Both the position numbers and the translations under genes were made by a program. DNA of 64,000 nt. Source: an uncultured Candidatus Saccharibacteria bacterium. Its GTDB lineage: Bacteria; Patescibacteriota; Minisyncoccia; UBA9983. The notes beneath the pieces were generated by a model, which saw nothing but the letters and a program-made list of their open reading frames with translations, ran no database searches and had not been told where the DNA came from. Below are positions 3,681 through 62,878 of the stretch, one piece after another. The stretch is taken from positions 6,563 to 70,562 of the forward strand of contig CAYJQX010000001.1 of NCBI GenBank assembly GCA_964372755.1, written 5' to 3'. Position 1 is the first letter of the stretch. Each line of letters starts with the position of its first letter.

Positions 3681-3733
3681 TCTTTTTTACTATAATCCTC
3701 AGGATTTGTTATTTTAAATAATTAATTAAAATT

Positions 3734-3816
3734 GCGCGGGTGCTGTAACGGTAGCCAGGCTGGCTTGAGGTGCCAGTGTCCGCAAGGACGTGGAGGTTCA
3801 AGTCCTCTCCCGCGCA
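3734..3816 (+). tRNA. tRNA-Leu (anticodon GAG), type II with long variable arm
   Basis: GCGCGGG TG CTG TAACGGTAGC CAG G CTGGC TTGAGGT GCCAG TGTCCGCAAGGACGT GGAGG TTCAAGT CCTCT CCCGCGC A. It has a 3-bp D stem, anticodon loop TTGAGGT and a variable-arm hairpin GTCC/GGAC. CCA is not encoded. Confidence 0.85.
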
Positions 3817-3967
3817 TAGTGAGCGAAGCGAACAAAGCGCGGAGCGAGCCAACTGCTTGGCTCGCGAGAGAGGGCTTGAATGCCGGAGTCATATCAAGTC
3901 AGCAGACGAGATGGCGAGGCGGGGGCGAGAAAATTTGTGAGTGACTGACGAACAAATTATTCGTGCC

Positions 3968-6335: not shown

Positions 6336-7214
6336 GTGGAGTTATTCTCTTTTATAGACGGTTTTTGGAACAAAAATACTTTAGCTGGAGCTACGGCTAT
6401 TTTTGTTCTTGTTATTATCTATCGGCTACTTAGCAAAACTCTTCTTAAACATTTTGAAGAAAAAGGCGTAAAACAAGACGAAAGAAAAAACTTCTTTCTT
6501 TTCTGGCGCTATGGCTGGTATACCTTGGGTATTGTTTTGCTTTTAGTGAGTTTTTCTGGTTCTATCGCGGGCTTGGGTATTTCCGCCGCGTTTCTCGGTC
6601 TTATTATGGGTTGGTCGCTTCAAGCGCCGGTAACGGGCCTTGCGGGCTGGCTTATGATTATTTTGAAACGTCCGTTTAAAATCGGGGACAGAATAATTAT
6701 TGCCGGCATTACCGGAGACGTAACGGATATTAATCTAACCCACATAGTTTTGAATCAGGTGGGTGGCACTATTGGCGGAGAGGAGAGATCGGGCCGGGCG
6801 GTTTTGATTCCAAACGCCACTTTGTTCGGGCAAATAATTTACAACTACACTTCAGAAAGTCATTATTTGCTTGATGAAGTGGTAATTAATGTTACTTTTG
6901 AATCAGATATGGAAGAAGCCAATAAAATTCTTCTTTTGTCAGCCGAAGAGGTGACAGGGGATGTAATGAGGAAAACAAATGAAAAGCCATTTATCCGAAC
7001 GGAAATCATGGAATATGGCGTGCGTCTTCGCTTGCGCTACAAAGCTTTCGCCAAAGACAGGCAGAGAACAACCAGCGAAATATCGGTGCGGATTTTAAAA
7101 GGTTTTAGGGCGTCAGACAAGGTGGCTTTTGCTTATCCTCATACGGAGATAGTTTATAAACCCGACACCAATACGCGAATTGATGCGAATGGCACGAATA
7201 GTATTAAATCCTAA
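6336..7214 (+). CDS. mechanosensitive ion channel, MscS family
   Basis: Three N-terminal TM helices followed by the MscS beta-domain pattern LKRPFKIGDRIIIAGITGDVTDINLTHIVLNQVGG. Confidence 0.8.
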   Translation: MELFSFIDGFWNKNTLAGATAIFVLVIIYRLLSKTLLKHFEEKGVKQDERKNFFLFWRYGWYTLGIVLLLVSFSGSIAGLGISAAFLGLIMGWSLQAPVTGLAGWLMIILKRPFKIGDRIIIAGITGDVTDINLTHIVLNQVGGTIGGEERSGRAVLIPNATLFGQIIYNYTSESHYLLDEVVINVTFESDMEEANKILLLSAEEVTGDVMRKTNEKPFIRTEIMEYGVRLRLRYKAFAKDRQRTTSEISVRILKGFRASDKVAFAYPHTEIVYKPDTNTRIDANGTNSIKS

Positions 7215-7262
7215 CTTCCTTCATTCGCGATATTCGTGGGTATTATTCGTGTATTGGTGTCG
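7163..7262 (+). repeat. about 100-nt imperfect-palindromic MITE-like repeat, copy 1 (terminal inverted repeats CGACACCAATACGCGAAT / ATTCGTGTATTGGTGTCG)
   Basis: Related copies at 27469-27602, 34733-34773 and 39161-39263. This copy contains the last codons and the TAA stop of the MscS gene. Confidence 0.55.
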
Positions 7263-7284
7263 TTACTAAAATTTCATTTTAACT

Positions 7285-8101: not shown

Positions 8102-9814
8102 ATGACTCAAAATCAAGCGCTTGAGATAATGAAAACAGGCGCTAATGTTTTTTTGACCGGCGAGCCCGGATCAGGGAAGACGCATACCATAAACGAGTAT
8201 GTGGCTTATTTGCTCTCTTGTGGCATTGAACCTTCTATTACGGCTTCAACCGGCATTGCCGCGACCCATATTGGCGGAATGACTATTCACTCGTGGAGTG
8301 GTATCGGGATTAGATCCAGATTGACTGAATACGATTTAGATAAAATTACTTCAACAGAATATATTGTAAAACGGGTGCGAAAAGCCAAGGTTCTCATCAT
8401 CGACGAAATTTCCATGCTCTCCGGAGAAACTCTTAATATGGTGGACGCCGTGTGCAAAGAAATAAAAAGAAATTCACTCTCTTTTGGCGGAATGCAAGTG
8501 ATTTTGGTGGGGGATTTTTTCCAACTTCCGCCTGTAAATAAAATTGAAAGAGAGGATGAGCCGGCGCAAATTTCTTTTCTTTTGGAAAATAAATCACATT
8601 TCGCTTACGAATCAGCCTCGTGGAAACAGGCTAATTTTATTGTTTGTTATTTAACCGAACAGCACAGGCAGGACGACCCTGATTTTCTCTCGCTCCTTTC
8701 TTCAATAAGGCGGAAGAATTTTAACCTTAGCCAGATCAAACATATGGAAAATCGCAAGATTTTAATACAAAACGCACCGCCACATGCGCCAAAACTTTTT
8801 TCGCACAATATAGACGTGGATGATGTTAATAAAAAAGCCCTGGAAGATATTTCGGGGAGCCCAAAAGTTTTCGAGATGTCCTCAAAAGGGAATGAAATTT
8901 TGATAAATGCCCTAAAAAAAGGATGCTTGTCTCCAGAGAAACTTTCTCTTAAAATCGGAGCCTCGGTAATGTTTACGAAAAATAGCCCAAGAGAGGGATT
9001 TGTAAACGGGACGCTTGGAGAAGTGACAGGCTTTGACAAAGAAAACGGCTATCCGCTTGTTAAGATTCGCAGTGGAAGGACAATTATGGTTCAACCTATG
9101 GATTGGACGATTGAGGAAGGAGGCACTATTCGCGCGCGAATCACGCAGATGCCTTTGAGGTTGGCTTGGGCGATCACGGTGCACAAGAGCCAAGGAATGA
9201 GCTTGGATCAAGCCGTGGTAGATTTATCACAAGTTTTTGAATTCGGGCAGGGATACGTGGCTCTCTCCAGAGTGCGGAGATTTTCCGGTCTTTATCTGTT
9301 GGGTTGGAACAAGCGGGCTTTTGAGGTTCATCCGGAAGTCTTAGAAAAAGATCAGTATTTTCAAAGTATTTCCCAAGAGATGGCAAGCGCTTTTTCTAAA
9401 ATGGATTCTGGCGAGATTGCAAAATTGCACAAAAATTTTATTGTTGCTTGCGGAGGAAAGAAAACTCAATTGCGAAAGAAAGCGCTAACTCGAATCGGGA
9501 CAAAGGATAAGAAAAAAACGACCTTTGAAACAACCTTGGAAATTTTTAAAAAAGGGAATAATGTTTCGGAAATTGCCAAAGAAAGAAATTTGGCTGAAAC
9601 GACCATCGTTTCCCACTTGGAAAAATTATATATGAAAGATTTGATTGATCAGAAAGAAATTTTGCGTATTATTCCCGCGCGGACAAGGGTGGATTTGGAA
9701 AAGATACAAAGAGCTTTTGGAGAAAGTGAGGACAATAAGCTCCTGCCCGTTTTTGAGAAGTTTAAAGGTAAGTATTCGTTCGAAGATTTGAGACTCGTGA
9801 GGTTGCTTGTTTGA
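8102..9814 (+). CDS. Pif1/RecD-family ATP-dependent DNA helicase with C-terminal HTH domain
   Basis: Walker A GEPGSGKTH, Walker B VLIIDEISM, the Pif1 signature DFFQLPPV, and a C-terminal HTH region (NVSEIAKERNLAETTIVSHLEKL). The extended -10 TGATACAAT at 8085-8093 lies 8 nt before the ATG. Confidence 0.8.
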   Translation: MTQNQALEIMKTGANVFLTGEPGSGKTHTINEYVAYLLSCGIEPSITASTGIAATHIGGMTIHSWSGIGIRSRLTEYDLDKITSTEYIVKRVRKAKVLIIDEISMLSGETLNMVDAVCKEIKRNSLSFGGMQVILVGDFFQLPPVNKIEREDEPAQISFLLENKSHFAYESASWKQANFIVCYLTEQHRQDDPDFLSLLSSIRRKNFNLSQIKHMENRKILIQNAPPHAPKLFSHNIDVDDVNKKALEDISGSPKVFEMSSKGNEILINALKKGCLSPEKLSLKIGASVMFTKNSPREGFVNGTLGEVTGFDKENGYPLVKIRSGRTIMVQPMDWTIEEGGTIRARITQMPLRLAWAITVHKSQGMSLDQAVVDLSQVFEFGQGYVALSRVRRFSGLYLLGWNKRAFEVHPEVLEKDQYFQSISQEMASAFSKMDSGEIAKLHKNFIVACGGKKTQLRKKALTRIGTKDKKKTTFETTLEIFKKGNNVSEIAKERNLAETTIVSHLEKLYMKDLIDQKEILRIIPARTRVDLEKIQRAFGESEDNKLLPVFEKFKGKYSFEDLRLVRLLV

Positions 9815-9901: not shown

Positions 9902-10708
9902 ATGTTTGTGGTTAAAGTAGGCGGGAGTCGAGGGATTAATTTGGAATATGTAATCAAAGATTTGGCTGACTTATCAGCAGGAGGAGAGAAATTTGTTTTG
10001 GTGCATGGCGTTTCCGAAGAGATGAACGAGATGTCGTCTAGACTCGGAAAGCCTGTGCGCACGATAACTTCGCCGTCCGGCTATGTTAGTCGGTACACAG
10101 ACAAGGAGACTATGGATATTTTTGGGATGGTCTCTGCGAAAATAAGGAACAAGATAGTTGAAGCGTTCCAGCAAAGAAAAGTTAACGCCCTCGGTTTAAG
10201 CGGAGTGGACGGACGGTTGTTGGAGGGCAAAAGAAAAGACTACATTCGCTCCATGGATGAGAAGGGGAGAATCTTGGTTATCCGCGACGATTACACAGGA
10301 AGAGTTGAAGAAGTGAATGTACCCTTACTCAACTCCCTGTTAAGGCAGGGATATGTTCCCATCGTCAGTCCCATGGCTGTGAGCCATGAAAGCGAGGCTA
10401 TCAATGTGGATGGCGATCGTGCCGCCGCGATAATTGCCGGAGCTCTTGGATTTTGTCGGCTGATTATTATTTCAAACACAGCCGGGTTGTTAAGGGACCC
10501 CGAAGACGAGTCATCACTCATTCAGACTCTTACTGAGGCCAAGATTGACGAGACCATAGAAAAATTTGCCCGTGGAAGAATGAAGAAAAAACTCTTGGGC
10601 GCTAAGGAGGCCTTTAGTCTGGGTGTCAAAGAGGTCATCTTGGCCGATGGGCGGATAGAGTTTCCAGTCTCCATCGCCCTTTCCGGCAGGGGAACTGTAA
10701 TAAGATAG
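9902..10708 (+). CDS. amino-acid kinase family protein, LysZ/ArgB-like ([LysW]-aminoadipate/acetylglutamate kinase-like)
   Basis: MFVVKVGGSRGINLEY...VLVHGVSEEMNEMSSRLGKPVRTITSPSGYVSRYTDKETMDIF...GLSGVDGRLL...INVDGDRAAAIIAGAL is nearly collinear with Thermus LysZ. A GAGGGGG SD sits 6 nt upstream. Confidence 0.65.
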   Translation: MFVVKVGGSRGINLEYVIKDLADLSAGGEKFVLVHGVSEEMNEMSSRLGKPVRTITSPSGYVSRYTDKETMDIFGMVSAKIRNKIVEAFQQRKVNALGLSGVDGRLLEGKRKDYIRSMDEKGRILVIRDDYTGRVEEVNVPLLNSLLRQGYVPIVSPMAVSHESEAINVDGDRAAAIIAGALGFCRLIIISNTAGLLRDPEDESSLIQTLTEAKIDETIEKFARGRMKKKLLGAKEAFSLGVKEVILADGRIEFPVSIALSGRGTVIR

Positions 10709-10720
10709 AGTTTGTGTTCG

Positions 10721-10757
10721 GCCCGAGACAAGTGCTGTCTCGGGCTTTTTTTATTTT
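10721..10757 (+). terminator. rho-independent terminator
   Basis: GCCCGAGACA agtgc TGTCTCGGGC is a perfect 10-bp stem, followed by TTTTTTTATTTT. Confidence 0.75.
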
Positions 10758-27010: not shown

Positions 27011-27034
27011 AAATAACAACTAAATCTAAAAGCG

Positions 27035-27466
27035 ATGAAATTTCAAGTTCCGCAATTCATAGAAGTTGAGACAAAAATATTCGGGCCGCTGACTTTGAAG
27101 CAGTTTTTGTATTTAGCCGGAGGCGCCGGCGCTTCTATCGTGCTCTACAGTTTGCTCCCTTTCTTTTTGATGATTATTTTCGCTGCGCCGATTGTCGCCC
27201 TCGCCCTCGCCCTCGCTTTTTACAAGCTAAATAATCAGCCTTTTGTGAGGGTGCTTGAAAATGCCATTAAGTTTTATCTGTCAGGCAGGCTTTTTTTGTG
27301 GAAGAAGACGCCAAATGAGGACAATAAATCAGTTTCTGTTGATAAAGAAGGAATATTGAAAACTGCGGGAATACAAACAAGCGGAACAACAGGTTATGTG
27401 CCGAAATTAACGCAAAGCAAATTAAAAGATTTATCCTGGAGTTTGGATATTAATAAAGAAACATAA
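27035..27466 (+). CDS. PrgI-family (VirB3-like) small membrane protein of Gram-positive-type T4SS
   Basis: MKFQVPQFIEVETKIFGPLTLKQFLYLAGGAGASIVLYSL matches the PrgI family N-terminal consensus (K.P.D.E...IFG.LT.RQF.YL) followed by a TM hairpin. Confidence 0.6.
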   Translation: MKFQVPQFIEVETKIFGPLTLKQFLYLAGGAGASIVLYSLLPFFLMIIFAAPIVALALALAFYKLNNQPFVRVLENAIKFYLSGRLFLWKKTPNEDNKSVSVDKEGILKTAGIQTSGTTGYVPKLTQSKLKDLSWSLDINKET

Positions 27467-27468
27467 CT

Positions 27469-27602
27469 CGACTCCAATACGCGAATTGACTCGAATGACA
27501 CTAATAGTATTAAAGCCTAACTTCTTTCATCCGCGTCATTCGTGCGCATTATTCCCTCCTTTGCTAGGAAGCTACGGGCGGGCAAGCGTGTATTAGCGTC
27601 GG
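27469..27602 (+). repeat. MITE-like repeat copy 2 (with an internal insertion of about 35 nt)
   Basis: CGACTCCAATACGCGAATTGACTCGAATGACACTAATAGTATTAAAGCCTAACTTCTTTCATCCGCGTCATTCGTGCGCATTATTC ... CGTGTATTAGCGTCGG is collinear with copy 1 at 7163-7262. Confidence 0.55.
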
Positions 27603-27608
27603 GTAAAA

Positions 27609-27624
27609 TGTTATAATTAAATCG
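27609..27624 (+). promoter_or_regulatory. extended -10 TGTTATAAT positioned 7 nt before the ATG (leaderless-type promoter)
   Basis: TGTTATAAT taaatcg ATG. The same layout recurs at many genes in this window. Confidence 0.45.
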
Positions 27625-34002: not shown

Positions 34003-34075
34003 GGTGTTTTTTTGACGGGAAACAAAAAACCAGCTAATTAAATATTGGCTGATTTTTTGTTTTGTTTATAAAATA

Positions 34076-34600: not shown

Positions 34601-34732
34601 GCTTGATAATTTAATTATTAGTAATTGTTTATTAATTCAAAAGGCAAGGGTCAAAATTTTCAGAGTTTTATACTTTACATTTTTTACTTTTAATTTTGCC
34701 TTTTGAGTTTTAACTTTTGATTTAAGTTTTTA

Positions 34733-34773
34733 ATTCGCGTCATTCGTGCGTATTATTCGTGTATTAGCGTCGG
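34733..34773 (+). repeat. MITE-like repeat, partial copy 3 (right half)
   Basis: TAATTCGCGTCATTCGTGCGTATTATTCGTGTATTAGCGTCGG. Overlaps the last codons and stop of nusA on the minus strand. Confidence 0.5.
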
Positions 34774-36520: not shown

Positions 36521-37927
36521 ATGAACAAAAAAATTCTCTTGCTTGCGATACTTGCTTTCGTTTTAGGAATGGGATTTTCCAAAGCTTTGGCTAATTGGTC
36601 TCCTCCTACCACTAATCCTACGGCGGGAAATGCCCCCACTCCTATTAGTGTTTCTGATTTGTCTCAATATAAAGGAGGGGCGCTTGGTGTGGGCGGTCTT
36701 TTTCGCGCTTTCAGTAATGTTTTGATAGACGGAAACCTTAATTTTTCTGCCAGCTCTACCGGAGCAATCAGAGTAAATGTTCCCGGCAAGCTCAATGCCA
36801 CCCAAGTTTGTATTAATGGAGATTGCAGAGGTAGTTGGGTCTCCGGAGGGGGTGGAGGTACAACAGTCAGCAACAATGGCTCCACTCTTGTGGCTGGAGA
36901 GGGCTTGAGTCTTTCTGATGGGACTCTTTCTTTGAATATAAATAACGGCACTGTCCAAACTTGTCCATCCGGTCAAAAGGCAGATGGCTTATCCCCGCTA
37001 GGAATTATTTCTTGTTCTGCCGATGCTGCTGGAGGTGTAGGGGGTTCGAACGTTTCTGGAGGGACAATAGGGAATCTAGCTTATTTCACCAGCCCAACTA
37101 CTTTGGGTAACTCTGCTCTTACACAGAACAACAAGGGAGCTCTTTACACTGGAGGCGCTTTGGGTGTGGGCGGACGTCTTGTTACTTGGGGGGGTTTTAA
37201 TGTGGGTTTGCCGGGTTTGGTGAATACGGCTCAAGTTTTTGTAAGACGCCCGAATCTTGGTGGCCAAGGAGTTTATGTTGGTAACCTCGATCCGGCTGGC
37301 TCTACTGATGGTTTTTCCACTAATTTTTCCGCAAACGCTACTCATTTCTCGGCGTTGATTAATGGCCAACCAGTTTTTAGTGTCGTCGGGAACGGGGACG
37401 GAAGTTTTAAAGGTAACCTTACGGTGGGTGGTACGGCTACTTTTGATAATGTCGTCACTTTCAAAAATAAATTAGAATTGTGGCCTCTGGATTTGCAATC
37501 TAATTCAGTGTCGGGTGGAGTTTCTCTTTCAAGTTCTGCAAGCGGTCGTTTTGATATCATGTTCGGAAACAAAGTAGGGGCTTTGTTCAACGCAAATGGA
37601 AACCTGACTCTTCCGGGCATAAATGATGTAAATGGTGGCCACATTAGAGCCGGACGACTGGAAATTGTGGACGGAAATTTTGTAACCACTATAGACGATA
37701 GTGTTTTGACAACCCAAGACGTGAATTTGCAGGATCCAAAATGGTCTATCACTAAACCAGAGCAAACAGCTCCCACAGTTAATACCACTAGGACAATCGG
37801 CGCTGTTTTTTACGATGAATGGAATAGGTGTCCAACAGGATATTTTATAAGCGGAATAAGGTTCGGCAAGAAAACGGCCGTGGGCGCAACCGCGGCAACC
37901 ACTGTCATAGAATGCAGCAAGCTCTAA
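36521..37927 (+). CDS. secreted Gly/Ser/Thr-rich fibre/adhesin-like protein (paralog family A)
   Basis: Signal peptide, then ANWSPPTTNPTAGNAPTPISVSDLSQYKGGALGVGGLF and a Cys-x-G-D-C-x-x-x-W motif (VCINGDCRGSWVS). Shares an N-terminal module with ORF 39280-40692. Confidence 0.5.
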   Translation: MNKKILLLAILAFVLGMGFSKALANWSPPTTNPTAGNAPTPISVSDLSQYKGGALGVGGLFRAFSNVLIDGNLNFSASSTGAIRVNVPGKLNATQVCINGDCRGSWVSGGGGGTTVSNNGSTLVAGEGLSLSDGTLSLNINNGTVQTCPSGQKADGLSPLGIISCSADAAGGVGGSNVSGGTIGNLAYFTSPTTLGNSALTQNNKGALYTGGALGVGGRLVTWGGFNVGLPGLVNTAQVFVRRPNLGGQGVYVGNLDPAGSTDGFSTNFSANATHFSALINGQPVFSVVGNGDGSFKGNLTVGGTATFDNVVTFKNKLELWPLDLQSNSVSGGVSLSSSASGRFDIMFGNKVGALFNANGNLTLPGINDVNGGHIRAGRLEIVDGNFVTTIDDSVLTTQDVNLQDPKWSITKPEQTAPTVNTTRTIGAVFYDEWNRCPTGYFISGIRFGKKTAVGATAATTVIECSKL

Positions 37928-39150
37928 AAAGAATTATATTGGCGGGTGTTTTGCTTTTGGTTTTTTCTTTTTTACCTGTCGTTCGCGCGGCTGGCACGGA
38001 AGTTTCTATAAACGGGCAAGCTTGGTCTTCCAATATCGGTTGGATAGATTTTCAGCCCGCCTTCGGCGGAGTTAAGTATGACACTTCAAACGGTAACCTT
38101 TCCGGATACGGCTGGTCTTCCAATGTCGGCTGGATAAGTTTTGAAAATAACGACACTAATAATTGTCCGGCCGGTTCTTGCAGGCCGAAAGTAATTCAAG
38201 ATAGCGACAATCCGAGTGATCCGACAAAGGGCATGGTTACCGGTTGGGCGAGAGTGGTTTCCGCTTGCGCGACAGACAAGTGGAACGGGAGTAATTGCAC
38301 AGGCAACGGAAGCGCGGGAAATTTAGCTGGAGGCTGGGACGGCTGGATAAGTTTTAATTGCACCAATAGTAACGGATGCGGAACTTCTAACTATAAAACA
38401 AAAATCAATCACGTAACGGGGGATTTTTCTGGTTATGCCTGGGGTTCGGACGTTGTGGGTTGGATAAGCTTCAATTGCACCAATCACAGCGGATGCGCCC
38501 AATCAAATTATAAAGTAACAAAAACCCCGGTAGTGGCTCCGACAGTGGATCTTACAGCCACTCCTTCTTCTGTAAATCAAGGCGGGTCTTCCACTCTTTC
38601 TTGGACTTCAACGGATGCAACCTCTTGTGATGCTTCGGGCGATTGGTCTGGCAGCAAAACAACAAGCGGATCTTCTGGAACAGGGACGCTAAATTCGCCA
38701 CCGGCTTCTCGCTCATACACGCTCACCTGTACTGGTCCGGGTGGAAGCTCTTTTGATACTGTGGCAGTTTCGATTCTTTATGATTTTGGAATAACTTCCA
38801 CTCCGGCAAATACGCAGGCGACATTTATAAGCGGTGCGTCTGCTTCAACGACGCCGGTAGATATCACCATTTCTCCCCTTGGCGGGTTCGCTCAACCTGT
38901 TTCCCTTTCTGTTTCTTCTATCACCAAAGATACGGACGGATCTCCGGTTACTGGTTTTACCTATAATATGAACCCAGCAACACAAAGTTCCCCCTACAGC
39001 TCTGGTTCTACTCTAGTGATTACTCTTCCTGGCACCACTCCGGCTGGAAGTTATACTGCCACGATTCAAGGCACAGGCGGGGGCTTGGTACGCACAACTT
39101 CTTTGAGAATCAACAGTGGCGGGGTGACGCCGGAGGTAAGGGAAAGATAG
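37912..39150 (+). CDS. secreted Cys-rich repeat protein
   Basis: Signal peptide MQQALKRIILAGVLLLVFSFLPVVRAAG. Repeats GWI(D/S)F...N..GC...NYK, x3 or more. Thr/Ser-rich C-terminus. Confidence 0.45.
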   Translation: MQQALKRIILAGVLLLVFSFLPVVRAAGTEVSINGQAWSSNIGWIDFQPAFGGVKYDTSNGNLSGYGWSSNVGWISFENNDTNNCPAGSCRPKVIQDSDNPSDPTKGMVTGWARVVSACATDKWNGSNCTGNGSAGNLAGGWDGWISFNCTNSNGCGTSNYKTKINHVTGDFSGYAWGSDVVGWISFNCTNHSGCAQSNYKVTKTPVVAPTVDLTATPSSVNQGGSSTLSWTSTDATSCDASGDWSGSKTTSGSSGTGTLNSPPASRSYTLTCTGPGGSSFDTVAVSILYDFGITSTPANTQATFISGASASTTPVDITISPLGGFAQPVSLSVSSITKDTDGSPVTGFTYNMNPATQSSPYSSGSTLVITLPGTTPAGSYTATIQGTGGGLVRTTSLRINSGGVTPEVRER

Positions 39151-39160
39151 TAGGTAGTAT

Positions 39161-39263
39161 AATGCGAACCCACGAATGTATGCGAATAATAAGAATTACA
39201 AGATTAAACCAGTGGTAAATTATTATTTTAACCTTAATTTGCGTCACTCGGGCGCATTTATAG
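39161..39263 (+). repeat. MITE-like repeat copy 4 (inverted left half + direct right half)
   Basis: AATGCGAACCCACGAATGTATGCGAATAATAAGAAT ... GCGTCACTCGGGCGCATTTATAG is related to the core GCGTCATTCGTGCGCATTATTC of copies 1 to 3. Confidence 0.5.
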
Positions 39264-39279
39264 ATTCACATTACGCTTT

Positions 39280-40692
39280 ATGAAAACAACCAAAACAATT
39301 TTAATTAGCGCTACGATCTTTACGGCTATTTTTATTGGCCAAGTTGTTTTTGCCTCTTGGACTGCCCCAACAGCTGATCCGACAGCCAACAACACGGAAG
39401 CGCCGATTAATGTAAGTGGTATAACTCAAAGCAAAGCGGGCGCTCTGGGGTCGGGAATTTTCAAAGCTTATGGGGATGTTGTGGGTTTGATTGACAACAT
39501 GCAGATTGTCGCAAGCGGTAATTCAAATACAAACAAAGGAATTACTATCGGCTATGACACTTCCGGCAACGTCGGGCACATATATTCCAGAGAAGTCGGA
39601 GCGGGCTCAAGGCCTTTGTCCTTGAACGGAAATAGTTTATACAGCACTGGTCTAAACGGTTCTGTGGGTATTGGCAATAATTCGCCGACTCAAAAATTAG
39701 ATGTCACAGGCAATGTCAAAGCCACTCAATTCTGTTTGGGTGCAAGTTGTATAAGCGACTGGACTTCAACCGGCAATAGCCAATGGACAAACGTAACGGG
39801 AGGCATTAATTATAGCGGTGGCAACGTAGGAGTGGGGGCCTCGACACCCGGAGCAAAATTCCATGTTTCAGGCACTTCTCTTTTTGACGGCAATATTACC
39901 CTAGATATTGCCGGTTCCGGCAATGATAGTCCTTCTCTCACTTTTGTAAGGTCTCCAAACGCCAACTGGTCTTTTCAAGACAGAAGCGGAAATTTTTATT
40001 TGGACACGAACTCTGAGGCCGACCAAACATTTTTTGTTTCAAACACGAATTCATCAAGAGTAGCTTCTCTTGATGTTGAAGGGAATGTAAAAGGAAGCCA
40101 ATTATGTATTGGCGGTGATTGCCGTACTGCTTGGCCAAGCACGGGGACATCATATGTTGGTAGCGCAAACATAGGCATCAGTGGCAGTACAATAAGTTTG
40201 GTCAGTTCGCCGACAGTTTCAAGTCTTACTTCTCAAGGTGCTATTTCTGCGAACTCGTTAAATCAATCGACTTATGGTTTACTTGTTCCCAATGGTAACG
40301 TCGGGATTGGCACGGCAGCTCCAAGTTCTAAGCTTGAAGTTGTGGGGAATATAATTGCCAACAGTCCGATTGCTAGTAATCATGTGGCCACGAAAGGATA
40401 TGTTGACGCTCAAGCTGGCGGAGCGCAATCGGTCATGGTTAAATCTCAATCCTCCTCCGTCAGTTGTCCGTCGGGATATGTGATTGCTAAATGCGGTTTT
40501 GGGAGTGGAAACAACGCTCAAGTCCAGAGTGAGGTCAACAACGGCGCAGCGCAATCATTTCAGGACGGGATAGAGACGGGCAGTACTCTTACGCGGACGT
40601 ATTGTCGTTATAACGATCTCGGTAGCCAAACGGCCACAAATCCGTATCCCAACCAAAAGAACGCTGCTGTAGCGCTTTGTGTCAAGCAATAG
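39280..40692 (+). CDS. secreted Gly/Ser/Thr-rich fibre/adhesin-like protein (paralog family A)
   Basis: Signal peptide, then ASWTAPTADPTANNTEAPINVSGITQSKAGALGSGIF. Two copies of the C-x-G-x-x-C-x-x-x-W motif (FCLGASCISDWTS, LCIGGDCRTAWPS). Confidence 0.5.
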   Translation: MKTTKTILISATIFTAIFIGQVVFASWTAPTADPTANNTEAPINVSGITQSKAGALGSGIFKAYGDVVGLIDNMQIVASGNSNTNKGITIGYDTSGNVGHIYSREVGAGSRPLSLNGNSLYSTGLNGSVGIGNNSPTQKLDVTGNVKATQFCLGASCISDWTSTGNSQWTNVTGGINYSGGNVGVGASTPGAKFHVSGTSLFDGNITLDIAGSGNDSPSLTFVRSPNANWSFQDRSGNFYLDTNSEADQTFFVSNTNSSRVASLDVEGNVKGSQLCIGGDCRTAWPSTGTSYVGSANIGISGSTISLVSSPTVSSLTSQGAISANSLNQSTYGLLVPNGNVGIGTAAPSSKLEVVGNIIANSPIASNHVATKGYVDAQAGGAQSVMVKSQSSSVSCPSGYVIAKCGFGSGNNAQVQSEVNNGAAQSFQDGIETGSTLTRTYCRYNDLGSQTATNPYPNQKNAAVALCVKQ

Positions 40693-57717: not shown

Positions 57718-58164
57718 ATGCCAGTTTTAGCCGAAAATCGTAAAGCCAGATTTGATTATGAAATCATTGAAGTTTTTGAATCGGGCTTAAAACTTACAGG
57801 TAGCGAAGTGAAAGCTGTTCGGGATGGAAAGGCCTCTATTGCGGGCGCTCATGTCATTATTCGCGGCGGGGAAGCTTATATTGTGGGGGTATCCATACAG
57901 CCATACCAGCCTTCAAATAAGTCTTCTTTGGTGGAAAAAGAAAGAACCATCACTCTTCTTCTAAACAAAAAGGAAATAGAATATCTTTTTGGGAAAACGG
58001 AAAAAACTGGTTTGACAATTGTGCCTATACGTGTTTATACTAAAGGGCCGAGAATAAAGCTGGAAATAGCTCTTTCTCGAGGCAAGAAAAAGAGCGATAA
58101 GAGGGAAACCATAAAAAAAAGAGACGATGAAAGGATTTCCGCTCGCGCTCTAGTACGGGAGTGA
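57718..58164 (+). CDS. smpB: SsrA-binding protein SmpB
   Basis: ENRKARFDYEIIEVFESGLKLTGSEVKAVRDGKASIAGAHV matches the SmpB signature. TGGTATAAT lies 6 nt before the ATG. Confidence 0.9.
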   Translation: MPVLAENRKARFDYEIIEVFESGLKLTGSEVKAVRDGKASIAGAHVIIRGGEAYIVGVSIQPYQPSNKSSLVEKERTITLLLNKKEIEYLFGKTEKTGLTIVPIRVYTKGPRIKLEIALSRGKKKSDKRETIKKRDDERISARALVRE

Positions 58165-58228
58165 CAATTGGTATCGACAAGAAATGTACTTTTATATGCG
58201 CATCGAGCAACATCTCAAATCTCGTAAA

Positions 58229-58516
58229 TCTGGGGGATAAAAACTCAAATGTAGCATCACCTTTTGCTACTCCGGCTCCCGCATACGCGTAAAGTCGGCG
58301 TTTCTTTCCGCAATTCTTGGTAGCGGAGAGAGGCGTTAATTGCCAAGATCGAAATATCACTTTGATTGATAGATGATGTTTCTAAACAAAAATCAATCAC
58401 GGCTTTAAAGATTTGGCCCACTTTCTACTTTAAGGTTTAAAAAATAAAGTGAAGCTACATGCGTAGAAATATTCAAGGAACCTTCTTGCACGTGGGTTCG
58501 AACCCCACCACTTCCA
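58229..58516 (+). ncRNA. ssrA: candidate tmRNA (ssrA) region; ends not resolved
   Basis: Immediately downstream of smpB. A tRNA-like T arm GTGGG TTCGAAC CCCAC (58492-58508) is followed by a 7-nt acceptor-like strand CACTTCC plus A (58509-58516). Upstream candidate 5' end GGGGGAT (58229), hairpin GTAGCA..TGCTAC and a short Ala-rich frame GCT ACT CCG GCT CCC GCA TAC GCG TAA (ATPAPAYA*). The intrinsic terminator at 58580-58607 closes the region. No clean 5' acceptor partner could be found by eye. Confidence 0.35.
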
Positions 58517-58579
58517 CTCGACTCGTTTTGCTTTGGAAAGCAAAACTCGCTCGTGGTAAACCACGTGAGCGATAAAAAT

Positions 58580-61791: not shown

Positions 61792-62457
61792 ATGGCAAGA
61801 AAAGAAGATAAAATAAAAGCAATAAGTCTCCGGCTTAAAGGCCAAAGTTACAGCCAAATAAAATCTAAAATTAAAATAAGTAAAAGCACCTTGAGCAATT
61901 GGCTTCAAGATTATCCGCTTTCAGAAAAGAGAATAAGAGAACTTCGCGATTTAAATCCCCAAAGAATAGAGAGGTATAGGGCAACTAGAGCTTTGCAGAA
62001 AAAAACTCGCTTGGATGAGATTTATGCAAAAGAGAAGAAAGCGCTTCTGCCTTTTTCAAAACGAGACCTTTTTATCGCAGGTCTTTTCCTGTATTGGGGA
62101 GAGGGAGGGAAAACCGCCAATGCACAGTTGACTTTAACAAATACAAAACCAAGTATTATCAAGTTTTTTATTTTTTGGGCGGACAAAGTTTTAAAAATAA
62201 ATAAAAAAGATATTGTATTTCGTCTGCATATTTTTAAGGATATGAGTCCCGAGAAAGAGATATTTGCTTGGTCTAAAGAGTTAAAAGTTTCTAAAAATCA
62301 GTTTAGGAAATGTTTTGTAAAGAAAACTTTAAGTTCTAGCGTGACATACAAAAGAAGCTTTAGGCATGGGACATGTGACGCGATAATCAGGGGTGCTCGA
62401 TTAGCAGAAAAAGTTTTAATGTCACTTAAAGCGATTGAAGATAGTTTCCGAAATTGA
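61792..62457 (+). CDS. HTH + LAGLIDADG-like endonuclease family protein (paralog of 1866-2540)
   Basis: HTH QSYSQIKSKIKISKSTLSNWLQD. LAGLIDADG-like block FIAGLFLYWGEGGKTAN. The stop lies 18 nt before the tRNA at 62476. Confidence 0.5.
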   Translation: MARKEDKIKAISLRLKGQSYSQIKSKIKISKSTLSNWLQDYPLSEKRIRELRDLNPQRIERYRATRALQKKTRLDEIYAKEKKALLPFSKRDLFIAGLFLYWGEGGKTANAQLTLTNTKPSIIKFFIFWADKVLKINKKDIVFRLHIFKDMSPEKEIFAWSKELKVSKNQFRKCFVKKTLSSSVTYKRSFRHGTCDAIIRGARLAEKVLMSLKAIEDSFRN

Positions 62458-62475: not shown

Positions 62476-62547
62476 GCGTCCGTAGCTCAATGGTAGAGCA
62501 GTCGTCTTATACACGACTGGCTGGGGGTTCGAGTCCCTCCGGACGCA
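62476..62547 (+). tRNA. tRNA with anticodon TAT (UAU; would decode AUA = Ile); CCA not encoded
   Basis: GCGTCCG TA GCTC AATGGTA GAGC A GTCGT CTTATAC ACGAC TGGCT GGGGG TTCGAGT CCCTC CGGACGC A. The cloverleaf is regular. Anticodon stem GTCGT/ACGAC is perfect and the loop CTTATAC puts TAT at positions 34-36. Confidence 0.65.
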
Positions 62548-62563
62548 TAGCAAGTCTTCAGGC

Positions 62564-62585
62564 ATGCGTCTGGAGGGACTCGAAC
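62564..62585 (+). repeat. inverted copy of the tRNA 3' end, forming a 22-bp hairpin with the tRNA T-arm/acceptor 3' strand
   Basis: ATGCGTCTGGAGGGACTCGAAC is the reverse complement of the tRNA 3' end GTTCGAGTCCCTCCGGACGCAT (62528-62549). One G-U position. A 14-nt spacer separates them. Confidence 0.6.
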
Positions 62586-62739: not shown

Positions 62740-62805
62740 AATATTCTCTCCCTGCCCTTGACTTCACAACACCAGATATGATAGAAATTTTACTGGAAAT
62801 ACCAA

Positions 62806-62878
62806 AGCGGGTTCGTTCAAACGGTCCAGGACGCCTTTCTCCCCGGAAGGAAATAGGGTTCAAATCCCTACCCGCTTT
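62806..62878 (+). other. tRNA-like element / possible pseudo-tRNA (T arm and acceptor fold; D arm does not)
   Basis: AGCGGGT ... TAGGG TTCAAAT CCCTA CCCGCTT T. The acceptor (7 bp) and T arm are good. A candidate anticodon arm CCTTT CTCCCCG GAAGG exists, but no D arm could be folded. Followed by the terminator at 62881-62920. Confidence 0.3.

Follow-up and report, generated by a model that had tools for sequence, protein, structure and literature searches.

What are the imperfect palindromes of about 100 nucleotides (nt) that recur in short gene spacers of a 64-kb stretch of patescibacterial DNA (contig CAYJQX010000001.1, hereafter the window), and how did two of them come to write the last codons of the genes mscS and nusA? 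Genomes of Patescibacteria, also known as the Candidate Phyla Radiation (CPR), are about 1 Mb in size, tightly packed and usually described as repeat-poor, and a literature search on MITEs (miniature transposable elements with inverted repeats) or palindromic intergenic repeats in CPR yielded nothing relevant. The palindromes analysed here are a real, lineage-specific, MITE-like repeat family. Its members are best understood, with a probability of roughly two in three, as copies of a palindromic, MITE-like DNA element that is non-autonomous and restricted to its lineage, here in a Paceibacteria-like genome of the CPR. The scope of all window results, including the copy number, is the 64 kb of the window with its 41% G+C.

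Four loci had been put forward in the initial annotation, and all of them hold as described, with boundaries refined as follows (copy 2 ends at 27601 and not at 27602):

7163-7262, plus strand: copy 1, the intact, complete 100-nt element
7163-7180 and 7245-7262: terminal inverted repeats of copy 1, 18 nt each, CGACACCAATACGCGAAT / ATTCGTGTATTGGTGTCG, with 17 Watson-Crick pairs and one G.T pair
7174, 7184 and 7193, plus strand: the three left-arm words YRCGAAT of copy 1
7223, 7232 and 7245, plus strand: the three right-arm words ATTCGYG of copy 1
7210-7218, plus strand: CCTAACTTC, contained in the asymmetric loop of copy 1
27469-27601, plus strand: copy 2, a 100-nt element split by a 33-nt insert
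27464-27466 and 27625: stop of the prgI-like gene and start of the traC-like gene, the neighbours of copy 2
34730-34772, plus strand: copy 3, a right arm alone, 40/43 identical to copy 2 and 37/43 to copy 1
about 39155-39263, strand not assigned: copy 4, a decayed member of a sister subfamily with the outer arms TAATGCGAAC... / ...GGGCGCATTTATA

Without its insert, copy 2 measures exactly 100 nt and agrees with copy 1 at 86 of 100 positions in an ungapped alignment. The earlier proposal of imperfect palindromes that form a dispersed family and are built like MITEs is supported. A repeat finder returned a 90-nt pair (7159-7248 and 27465-27554, 86% identity) and a right-arm family of three (7220-7262, 27526-27568 and 34730-34772), and self-BLAST connected copy 1 to copy 2 (E=2e-19) and to copy 3 (E=3e-5). 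The degenerate core CGCGNNATTCGTGNGNATTATTC matches three times in the window, exactly at copies 1 to 3, compared with 0.03 matches expected; the common core claimed previously, GCGTCATTCGTGCGCATTATTC, is found as an exact string in copy 2 only, with one mismatch in copy 3 and four in copy 1. Copy 4 was missed by BLAST, was recovered by nhmmer with a model built on copies 1 to 3 (E=7e-4) and is 94% identical over 33 nt to positions 1396-1428 of a relative's contig (L009). Clusters of the heptamer words are confined to the copies, and profile and word scans of the window found no additional copies or word clusters. Since copies 1 and 2 agree at 86% in spacers 20 kb apart, to be compared with 78-84% identity of the flanking coding DNA between the window and its close relatives, copying or conversion must have been recent. 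The sequence has been duplicated between unrelated loci within this genome.

Contigs of relatives, designated by L-numbers, were obtained via homologues of NusA, MscS and the TraC-like protein, and their alignment addresses the second part of the question. Two open reading frames (ORFs) of the window end inside a copy:

6336-7214, plus strand: mscS ORF, with an element-encoded tail at 7164-7214 of 16 sense codons (DTNTRIDANGTNSIKS) and TAA
34753-35931, minus strand: nusA ORF, to which copy 3 gives 2 nt of a Pro codon, TLIHE and the TAA (34753-34755)

Both overlaps had been predicted, the former as the C-terminal codons and TAA of mscS, the latter as the nusA stop on the opposite strand, and both are confirmed. 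MscS of the window ends in ...AFAYPHTEIVYKPDTNTRIDANGTNSIKS-stop, while a 79%-identical orthologue ends in ...TEIVYQGGIKT-stop and a 64%-identical one in ...TEIVYKR-stop; the conserved block closes at YPHxE(I/V), and DNA homology to the sister species ends at GTTTATAAAC, the exact start of copy 1. Equally, NusA of the window ends in ...EEEVVVDPTLIHE-stop, while relatives with 86-91% identity end in ...VVVEDEKIKS-stop, ...VVVKEEKIDS-stop or ...VIEEEKIES-stop, with the alignment breakpoint located between GTCGTAGA and TCCGACGC. As judged from these alignments, the last 16 codons plus TAA of mscS are element sequence and the last 5-6 codons plus stop of nusA are derived from copy 3, neither of them being ancestral, in agreement with what had been suspected from the window. 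About 60 nt of ancestral sequence have been replaced at the nusA end, so that this was not a clean insertion. The element has no coding capacity, and five of its six reading frames are closed by stops within 17 codons. With frames so rich in stops, insertions at gene 3' ends would be tolerable, and an insertion that clips a stop codon would leave a survivable gene end with a few C-terminal residues swapped, as in mscS and nusA. The statement that all copies lie at gene 3' ends stands insofar as all are found in short spacers between co-directional genes, and falls for copies 2 and 4, which overlap no gene.

Comparison of the four junctions across relatives indicates how the spacers came to be filled. 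In the sister species L013 the mscS-cobA junction is occupied by a 116-nt hairpin (L013 1544-1660) whose loop is that of copy 1 in opposite orientation (AAGAAGTTAAGAC, the complement of GTCTTAACTTCTT) and whose boundaries differ from those of copy 1, with the words TGCGAAT, ATTCGCA and GCTAAT in common; its outer arm supplies the last codons, IKT-stop, of that MscS. An independent or re-worked insertion at this site would account for the differences. Sequence homologous to part of the L013 element lies behind copy 1:

7263-7284, plus strand: spacer from copy 1 to the cobA ATG, with homology to L013 1641-1665, the right outer arm of the element there

Given this homology, the spacer was probably left behind by an older insertion. 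In L029 (64% MscS identity) the TAA of mscS is followed by 1 nt and then by the cobA ATG. The spacer orthologous to that of copy 4 holds a 116-nt family member in L010 (1049-1164), so copy 4 represents an old, decayed member. The elements of L013 and L010, located at different junctions, are about 85% identical over 112 nt, which means that intragenomic duplication is seen in the sister lineage as well. Copy 4 itself lies between two genes for secreted proteins that are 78% and 53% identical to their L010 counterparts. These genes (37828-39150 and 39280-40692) encode repeat proteins without Pfam or NCBIfam matches, with the repeats WSSNIGWI(D/S)F and GNVGIG...LDV(S/T)GN(V/I)KA and repeats located at 38023-38142 and 38341-38521; the start of the ORF at 37828-39150 is probably Met29, as in the L010 orthologue.

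The prgI-traC junction contains a degenerate copy 2 orthologue, split by an AT-rich palindrome, in L006/L023, a hairpin of CATTAG/CTAATG words that the family profile misses in L022 (9853-9990, z -3.0), and an element-free spacer of 9 nt in the 68% relative L027. An apparently empty site with a 22-nt spacer in L023 was discarded, as L023 and L006 are one sequence and the ORF predicted over the repeat in L023 is spurious. Just upstream of prgI, an Avd-like gene (PF05635/bAvd) is located in L006 (9059-9445) and L022 (9073-9402) and is absent in the window, where the spacer measures 24 nt (27011-27034); Avd-like genes accompany diversity-generating retroelements. At the nusA-ppa junction the element is absent in L006 and L010 (90% NusA identity), the L024 spacer measures 33 nt, and L009 carries a 33-nt insert together with the stretch that is 94% identical to the copy 4 arm. 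Element-free tight junctions of 1, 9 and 33 nt are thus found at three of the four sites in more distant relatives, which are too diverged to give exact insertion points. The sites of copies 2 and 4 are also occupied in sister species, and at some sister-species junctions the elements are oppositely oriented or nested. The subfamilies, alike in loop and words, form one superfamily. The family hidden Markov model matches the window, L006/L023, L009, L010 and L013-L015, whereas about 40 kb of the more distant L022 and L024-L028 gave no members. These alignments place the insertions at gene junctions that used to be tight and that hold no element in more distant relatives. The gene content of the window is typical of Patescibacteria, with a VirB4/TraC-TraG-PrgI type IV-like cluster, type IV pilus and ComEC genes, besides small ribosomal and glycolytic genes and tmRNA/SmpB, and the nearest named homologues of its proteins belong to 'Candidatus Paceibacterota' or 'Patescibacteria group'.

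A full unit of the family measures about 100-116 nt with terminal inverted repeats of 13-18 nt. The arms consist of two or three words of 6-7 nt (GCGAAT, ACGAAT or GCTAAT and their complements) 9-13 nt apart, arranged 3+3 with just this spacing in copy 1; the family loop is asymmetric (CYTAACTTCYT), and units begin with CGAC or TGAT, the element ends being CGACNCCAATAC... or TGATGCGAATA.... All 32 of the 32 modelled stem pairs are formed in copy 1, which folds strongly (RNA -38.5 kcal/mol, z -4.4; DNA z -5.0), and the DNA z-scores of the intact L013 and L010 elements are -6.7 and -6.6, compared with -1.4 and -0.4 for the older copies 2 and 4. Relative to copy 1, five of the 32 pairs of copy 2 are broken and none is compensated, copy 4 as RNA gives z -0.7 on the plus and -3.2 on the minus strand, and copy 3 as a half element is unable to fold. 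Across the subfamilies the two termini co-vary: of the 13 outer-stem pairs, 5 are changed on both sides, 91% of cells are paired and the covariation score was reached by 0 of 500 shuffles, a result obtained with a hand-registered alignment of five sequences and dependent on that registration. An RNAalifold alignment of six family members was unusable, the MAFFT register having slipped on the repeated words.

Existing copies have in turn received smaller repeats, two of which can be delimited in the window:

27555-27587, plus strand: 33-nt insert (type B), CCTCCTTTGCTAGGAAGCTACGGGCGGGCAAGC, in the right arm of copy 2 directly after ATTC
34636-34725, strand not assigned: AT-rich palindrome (type C) upstream of ppa, different from copy 3 and joined to it, DNA fold z -3.0

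A second copy of the 33-nt insert, CCTCCTTYGCTAGNAAGCTNCGGGYGGGCAAGC, with four differences, is present in the nusA-ppa spacer of L009 (1330-1362). Both inserts are located directly 3' of ATTC without duplication, and the insert is absent from copies 1 and 3 and from L010; it is GC-rich, starts with the anti-Shine-Dalgarno-like CCTCCTT and had no match in viral contigs. Its reading as a REP-like hairpin was rejected, the fold being no better than shuffles (z +1.3). The AT-rich palindrome (TCAAAAGGCAAGGG... / ...AATTTTGCCTTTTGAGTTTTAAC) is common to different loci of two species, with its counterpart in the copy 2 orthologue (L006 8452-8560, equal to L023 20-130), and at both loci it stands directly left of a ATTCGCGTCATTCGT right arm, so that the composite of palindrome and right arm may move or recombine as a unit. 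Copies decay, and further small repeats are inserted into them.

How the element spreads can be framed in two ways. It would be mobilised by a transposase supplied in trans, in which case the word arrays could be subterminal transposase-binding sites; alternatively, hairpin-mediated recombination or conversion between copies would account for the duplications. Under either mechanism, effects on transcripts would be a by-product and not the reason for the existence of the copies. Several observations weigh against the mobile-element interpretation. Sequence inspection showed neither a target-site duplication nor a conserved TA at the ends of copies 1 and 2; TA dinucleotides occur 2-4 nt outside these ends at variable distance in AT-rich flanks. 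No recognisable transposase, REP-associated tyrosine transposase (RAYT) or insertion sequence (IS) with matching ends was found among about 60 window proteins. Scanning genome, metagenome and viral collections for the exact patterns yielded nothing beyond chance matches with unrelated flanks, and a BLAST search of the element against phage and plasmid collections gave nothing. The evidence base is 64 kb of genome, and for each of the four spacers there is at least one sister species with some hairpin at that place, so that the sites could need a hairpin rather than merely permit it. Furthermore, what looks like transposition could be concerted evolution by gene conversion. The missing target-site duplication and the missing transposase are the main gaps in the MITE label.

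The observation on sister-species hairpins leads to an explanation that is unlikely but deserves a hearing, namely that the hairpins are selected RNA or DNA punctuation at operon junctions, acting as 3'-end stabilisers, RNase III sites or unconventional terminators or insulators ahead of the promoter that follows, with gene conversion keeping them similar within a genome. Its arguments are the recurrence of a hairpin in every spacer in at least one of L013, L006, L022, L009 and L010, the co-variation of the outer stem and the folds of copy 1 and of the L013 and L010 elements, which are far better than those of shuffles. To these comes the position of copy 2, which ends 7 nt before the conserved extended -10 motif of traC. 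This motif, TGTTATAAT, is host sequence at 27609-27617, 7-11 nt upstream of the traC-like ATG, and is conserved in three species, being the same in L006 (about 8385-8393, minus strand) and TGTTATCAT in L022 (about 9986-9994), while the 9-nt junction of L027 has no room for it; its placement suggests a leaderless or near-leaderless traC-like transcript starting just after the repeat. Against punctuation speaks that the same junctions in more distant relatives do without any spacer, that the loop is inverted between species at one site, and that the better-folding strand is the sense strand for copy 1 (slightly) and the antisense strand for copies 2 and 4. Significant folding has been lost in copies 2 and 4, the broken pairs of copy 2 remain uncompensated, and copy 3 is a half element. 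An intrinsic terminator, as also proposed at the outset, was rejected: no copy is followed by a U-run (copy 1 is followed by TTACTAAAAT, copy 2 by GGTAAAATG), the strand is inconsistent and copies 2 and 4 fold no better than shuffles. A terminator scan flagged only trivial sub-hairpins at the copies (7223-7241 and 34736-34750, the latter antisense), while other parts of the window do have canonical terminators, such as those at 10720-10746 and 34020-34062.

A joint reading of the arms and the nested repeats, quite unlikely on the few copies on which it may be built, is a layered repeat system in which word-array hairpins for a clade-specific DNA-binding protein or recombinase are targeted by the 33-nt element and the AT-rich palindrome. 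The hairpins would then be assembled from short words (GCGAAT/GCTAAT, and CATTAG in L022) that change together on the two arms, and the 33-nt element would enter precisely behind the word core ATTC, as seen twice, in two species. If true, few known site-specific mobile insertions would be as small as the 33-nt unit, and the word arrays would be the sign of a transposition or recombination system not yet described, in streamlined genomes regarded as poor in mobile DNA.

The narrower version of this idea, that the arms are protein-binding arrays of GCGAAT/GCTAAT words, about one helical turn apart, for a clade-specific regulator, nucleoid protein or recombinase, with the palindrome resulting from two-fold symmetric binding, is doubtful. 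The 3+3 words of copy 1 would suit such a protein, words recur across subfamilies while the intervening sequence varies, and one G-to-T change in a word has its counterpart on the opposite arm (GCGAAT/ATTCGC in L010, GCTAAT/ATTAG in L013); two paralogous helix-turn-helix (HTH) proteins are encoded in the window. The heptamer is, however, not enriched outside the elements (32 observed, 34 expected), no partner protein was identified and the copies decay; moreover, the same pattern is equally expected of subterminal transposase-binding sites and hence partly compatible with a mobile element.

The HTH paralogues (1866-2540 and 61792-62457) are about 220 amino acids long, 29% identical (E=5e-19) and have the motif LY(L/W)GEG(A/G)KT in common, with a weak transposase- or resolvase-type N-terminal HTH match and no catalytic domain recognised. 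Each adjoins a tRNA gene, tRNA-Val (1698-1774) and tRNA-Ile (62476-62547), respectively. The latter has the unusual anticodon UAU, and 15 nt behind it its last 22 nt recur in inverted orientation (arms 62527-62548 and 62564-62585, 95% complementary, region 62476-62585), which could be an integration scar or a structure sequestering the tRNA 3' end. Two further tRNA genes, tRNA-Leu(GAG) and tRNA-Gly(CCC), were called by ARAGORN at 3733-3817 and 62805-62878 and are absent from the Rfam gathering-threshold list; the tmRNA at 58157-58519 was reported by Rfam only.

Repetitive extragenic palindromes (REPs) and the bacterial interspersed mosaic elements (BIMEs) built of them are intergenic imperfect palindromes that measure 20-40 nt, carry a GT[AG]G head, form clusters, often lie at gene 3' ends, lack a target-site duplication and are accompanied by a RAYT gene; IS200/IS605-type systems insert after a fixed tetranucleotide. 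That the repeats are such elements and owe their spread to a RAYT (Y1 HUH) transposase whose gene lies in another part of the genome is highly improbable. The likeness extends to intergenic imperfect palindromes without visible target-site duplication, often at gene 3' ends, and to the 33-nt insert, which in two cases follows a fixed ATTC and has been likened to IS200/IS605. On the other hand, the units measure 100-116 nt, lack the conserved GTAG/GTGG head and are single instead of forming clusters of alternating orientation, and neither a Y1_Tnp match nor a RAYT gene was found among the window proteins, so that the REP label of the initial annotation had to be dropped. Chance similarity or an assembly artefact has practically no probability left and is already refuted for copies 1 to 3, for while copy 4 alone is weak and escaped BLAST, the E-value between copies 1 and 2 and the threefold core stand against chance, and copy 1 is 100% identical in two independent Logan assemblies, which excludes an artefact, with homologous copies in other samples.

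A number of known classes were compared and rejected. No Rfam 15 family matched at gathering score, the only hit at E<=1 being a chance match to snoR31 (20.7 bits, gathering score 44). A template and variable repeat pair of a diversity-generating retroelement is contradicted by the 14 mismatches between copies 1 and 2, only two of which are at A in either copy, without adenine bias. Tandem interspaced guide RNA (TIGR) arrays are tandem units adjoining a Tas gene (PMC12045711); the units in the window are single and dispersed, no tandem array of TIGR or CRISPR type is formed, and no Nop- or Tas-like match was found among the window proteins scanned with Pfam. Integron attC sites were set aside, as RYYYAAC/GTTRRRY boxes are absent on inspection and the neighbours are housekeeping genes; equally, a DNA-uptake sequence was set aside, the heptamer not being enriched outside the elements.

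Bacterial MITEs, as characterised in Table 1 of the Delihas review (PMC2229807), are about 100-200 bp long without coding capacity for a transposase, have terminal inverted repeats, a long stable stem-loop and a target-site duplication or TA at their ends, occur in dispersed copies, can fuse to ORFs, and have filled as well as empty orthologous sites and a cognate IS or transposase with like ends. The family agrees in size, lack of coding capacity, terminal inverted repeats, stable stem-loop and dispersed copies (three clear ones and one diverged in 64 kb), in ORF fusion and in filled versus empty orthologous sites (the latter in L029, L027, L024 and L006/L010). The closest counterpart in lifestyle and effect is the Rickettsia palindromic element (RPE), which the review's account describes as a palindrome of about 100-150 nt, bounded by terminal inverted repeats and resident in a small, reduced genome, intergenic as well as fused to genes and translated (PMC2229807). 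In contrast to the family, RPEs are typically inserted in frame inside ORFs with the downstream protein kept, while here the C-terminus is replaced and a stop supplied, and the host phylum differs; no sequence relationship was seen, with no comparison aimed at one made. Correia/NEMIS of Neisseria, ERIC/IRU of enterobacteria and RUP of pneumococcus are similar in the review's tabulation, with 100-200 nt, terminal inverted repeats, a long stem-loop, dispersed copies in transcribed spacers and occasional ORF fusions; their TA target-site duplications have no visible equivalent here, and word-array arms of 3+3 GCGAAT-type heptamers are not among the features that Table 1 gives for them (PMC2229807). 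The integration host factor site and promoter parts are Correia's, with no evidence of them here. The Coxiella elements QMITE1 and QMITE2 resemble the family, as described in PMC5896051, as small-genome MITEs that overlap ORFs or lie in 3' untranslated regions and are targets for other insertions. They differ in measuring 150-400 bp with direct repeats and, in QMITE2, a GTAG REP (PMC5896051), as compared to 100 nt without either here, and the nested invaders of the family are a 33-nt insert and an AT-rich palindrome and not IS.

The family is thus a known kind of selfish DNA in a new lineage, as Rickettsia, enterobacteria and Coxiella have already provided examples of C-termini derived from MITEs. 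By parting genes that once abutted and altering how essential genes such as nusA end, the family shows that selfish DNA still shapes CPR genomes, and at prgI-traC the occupied spacers also carry the promoter-like extended -10. In practical terms, such repeats break short-read assemblies, leave protein tails that are specific to a species and pass for native in annotation pipelines, and offer markers for strain tracking.

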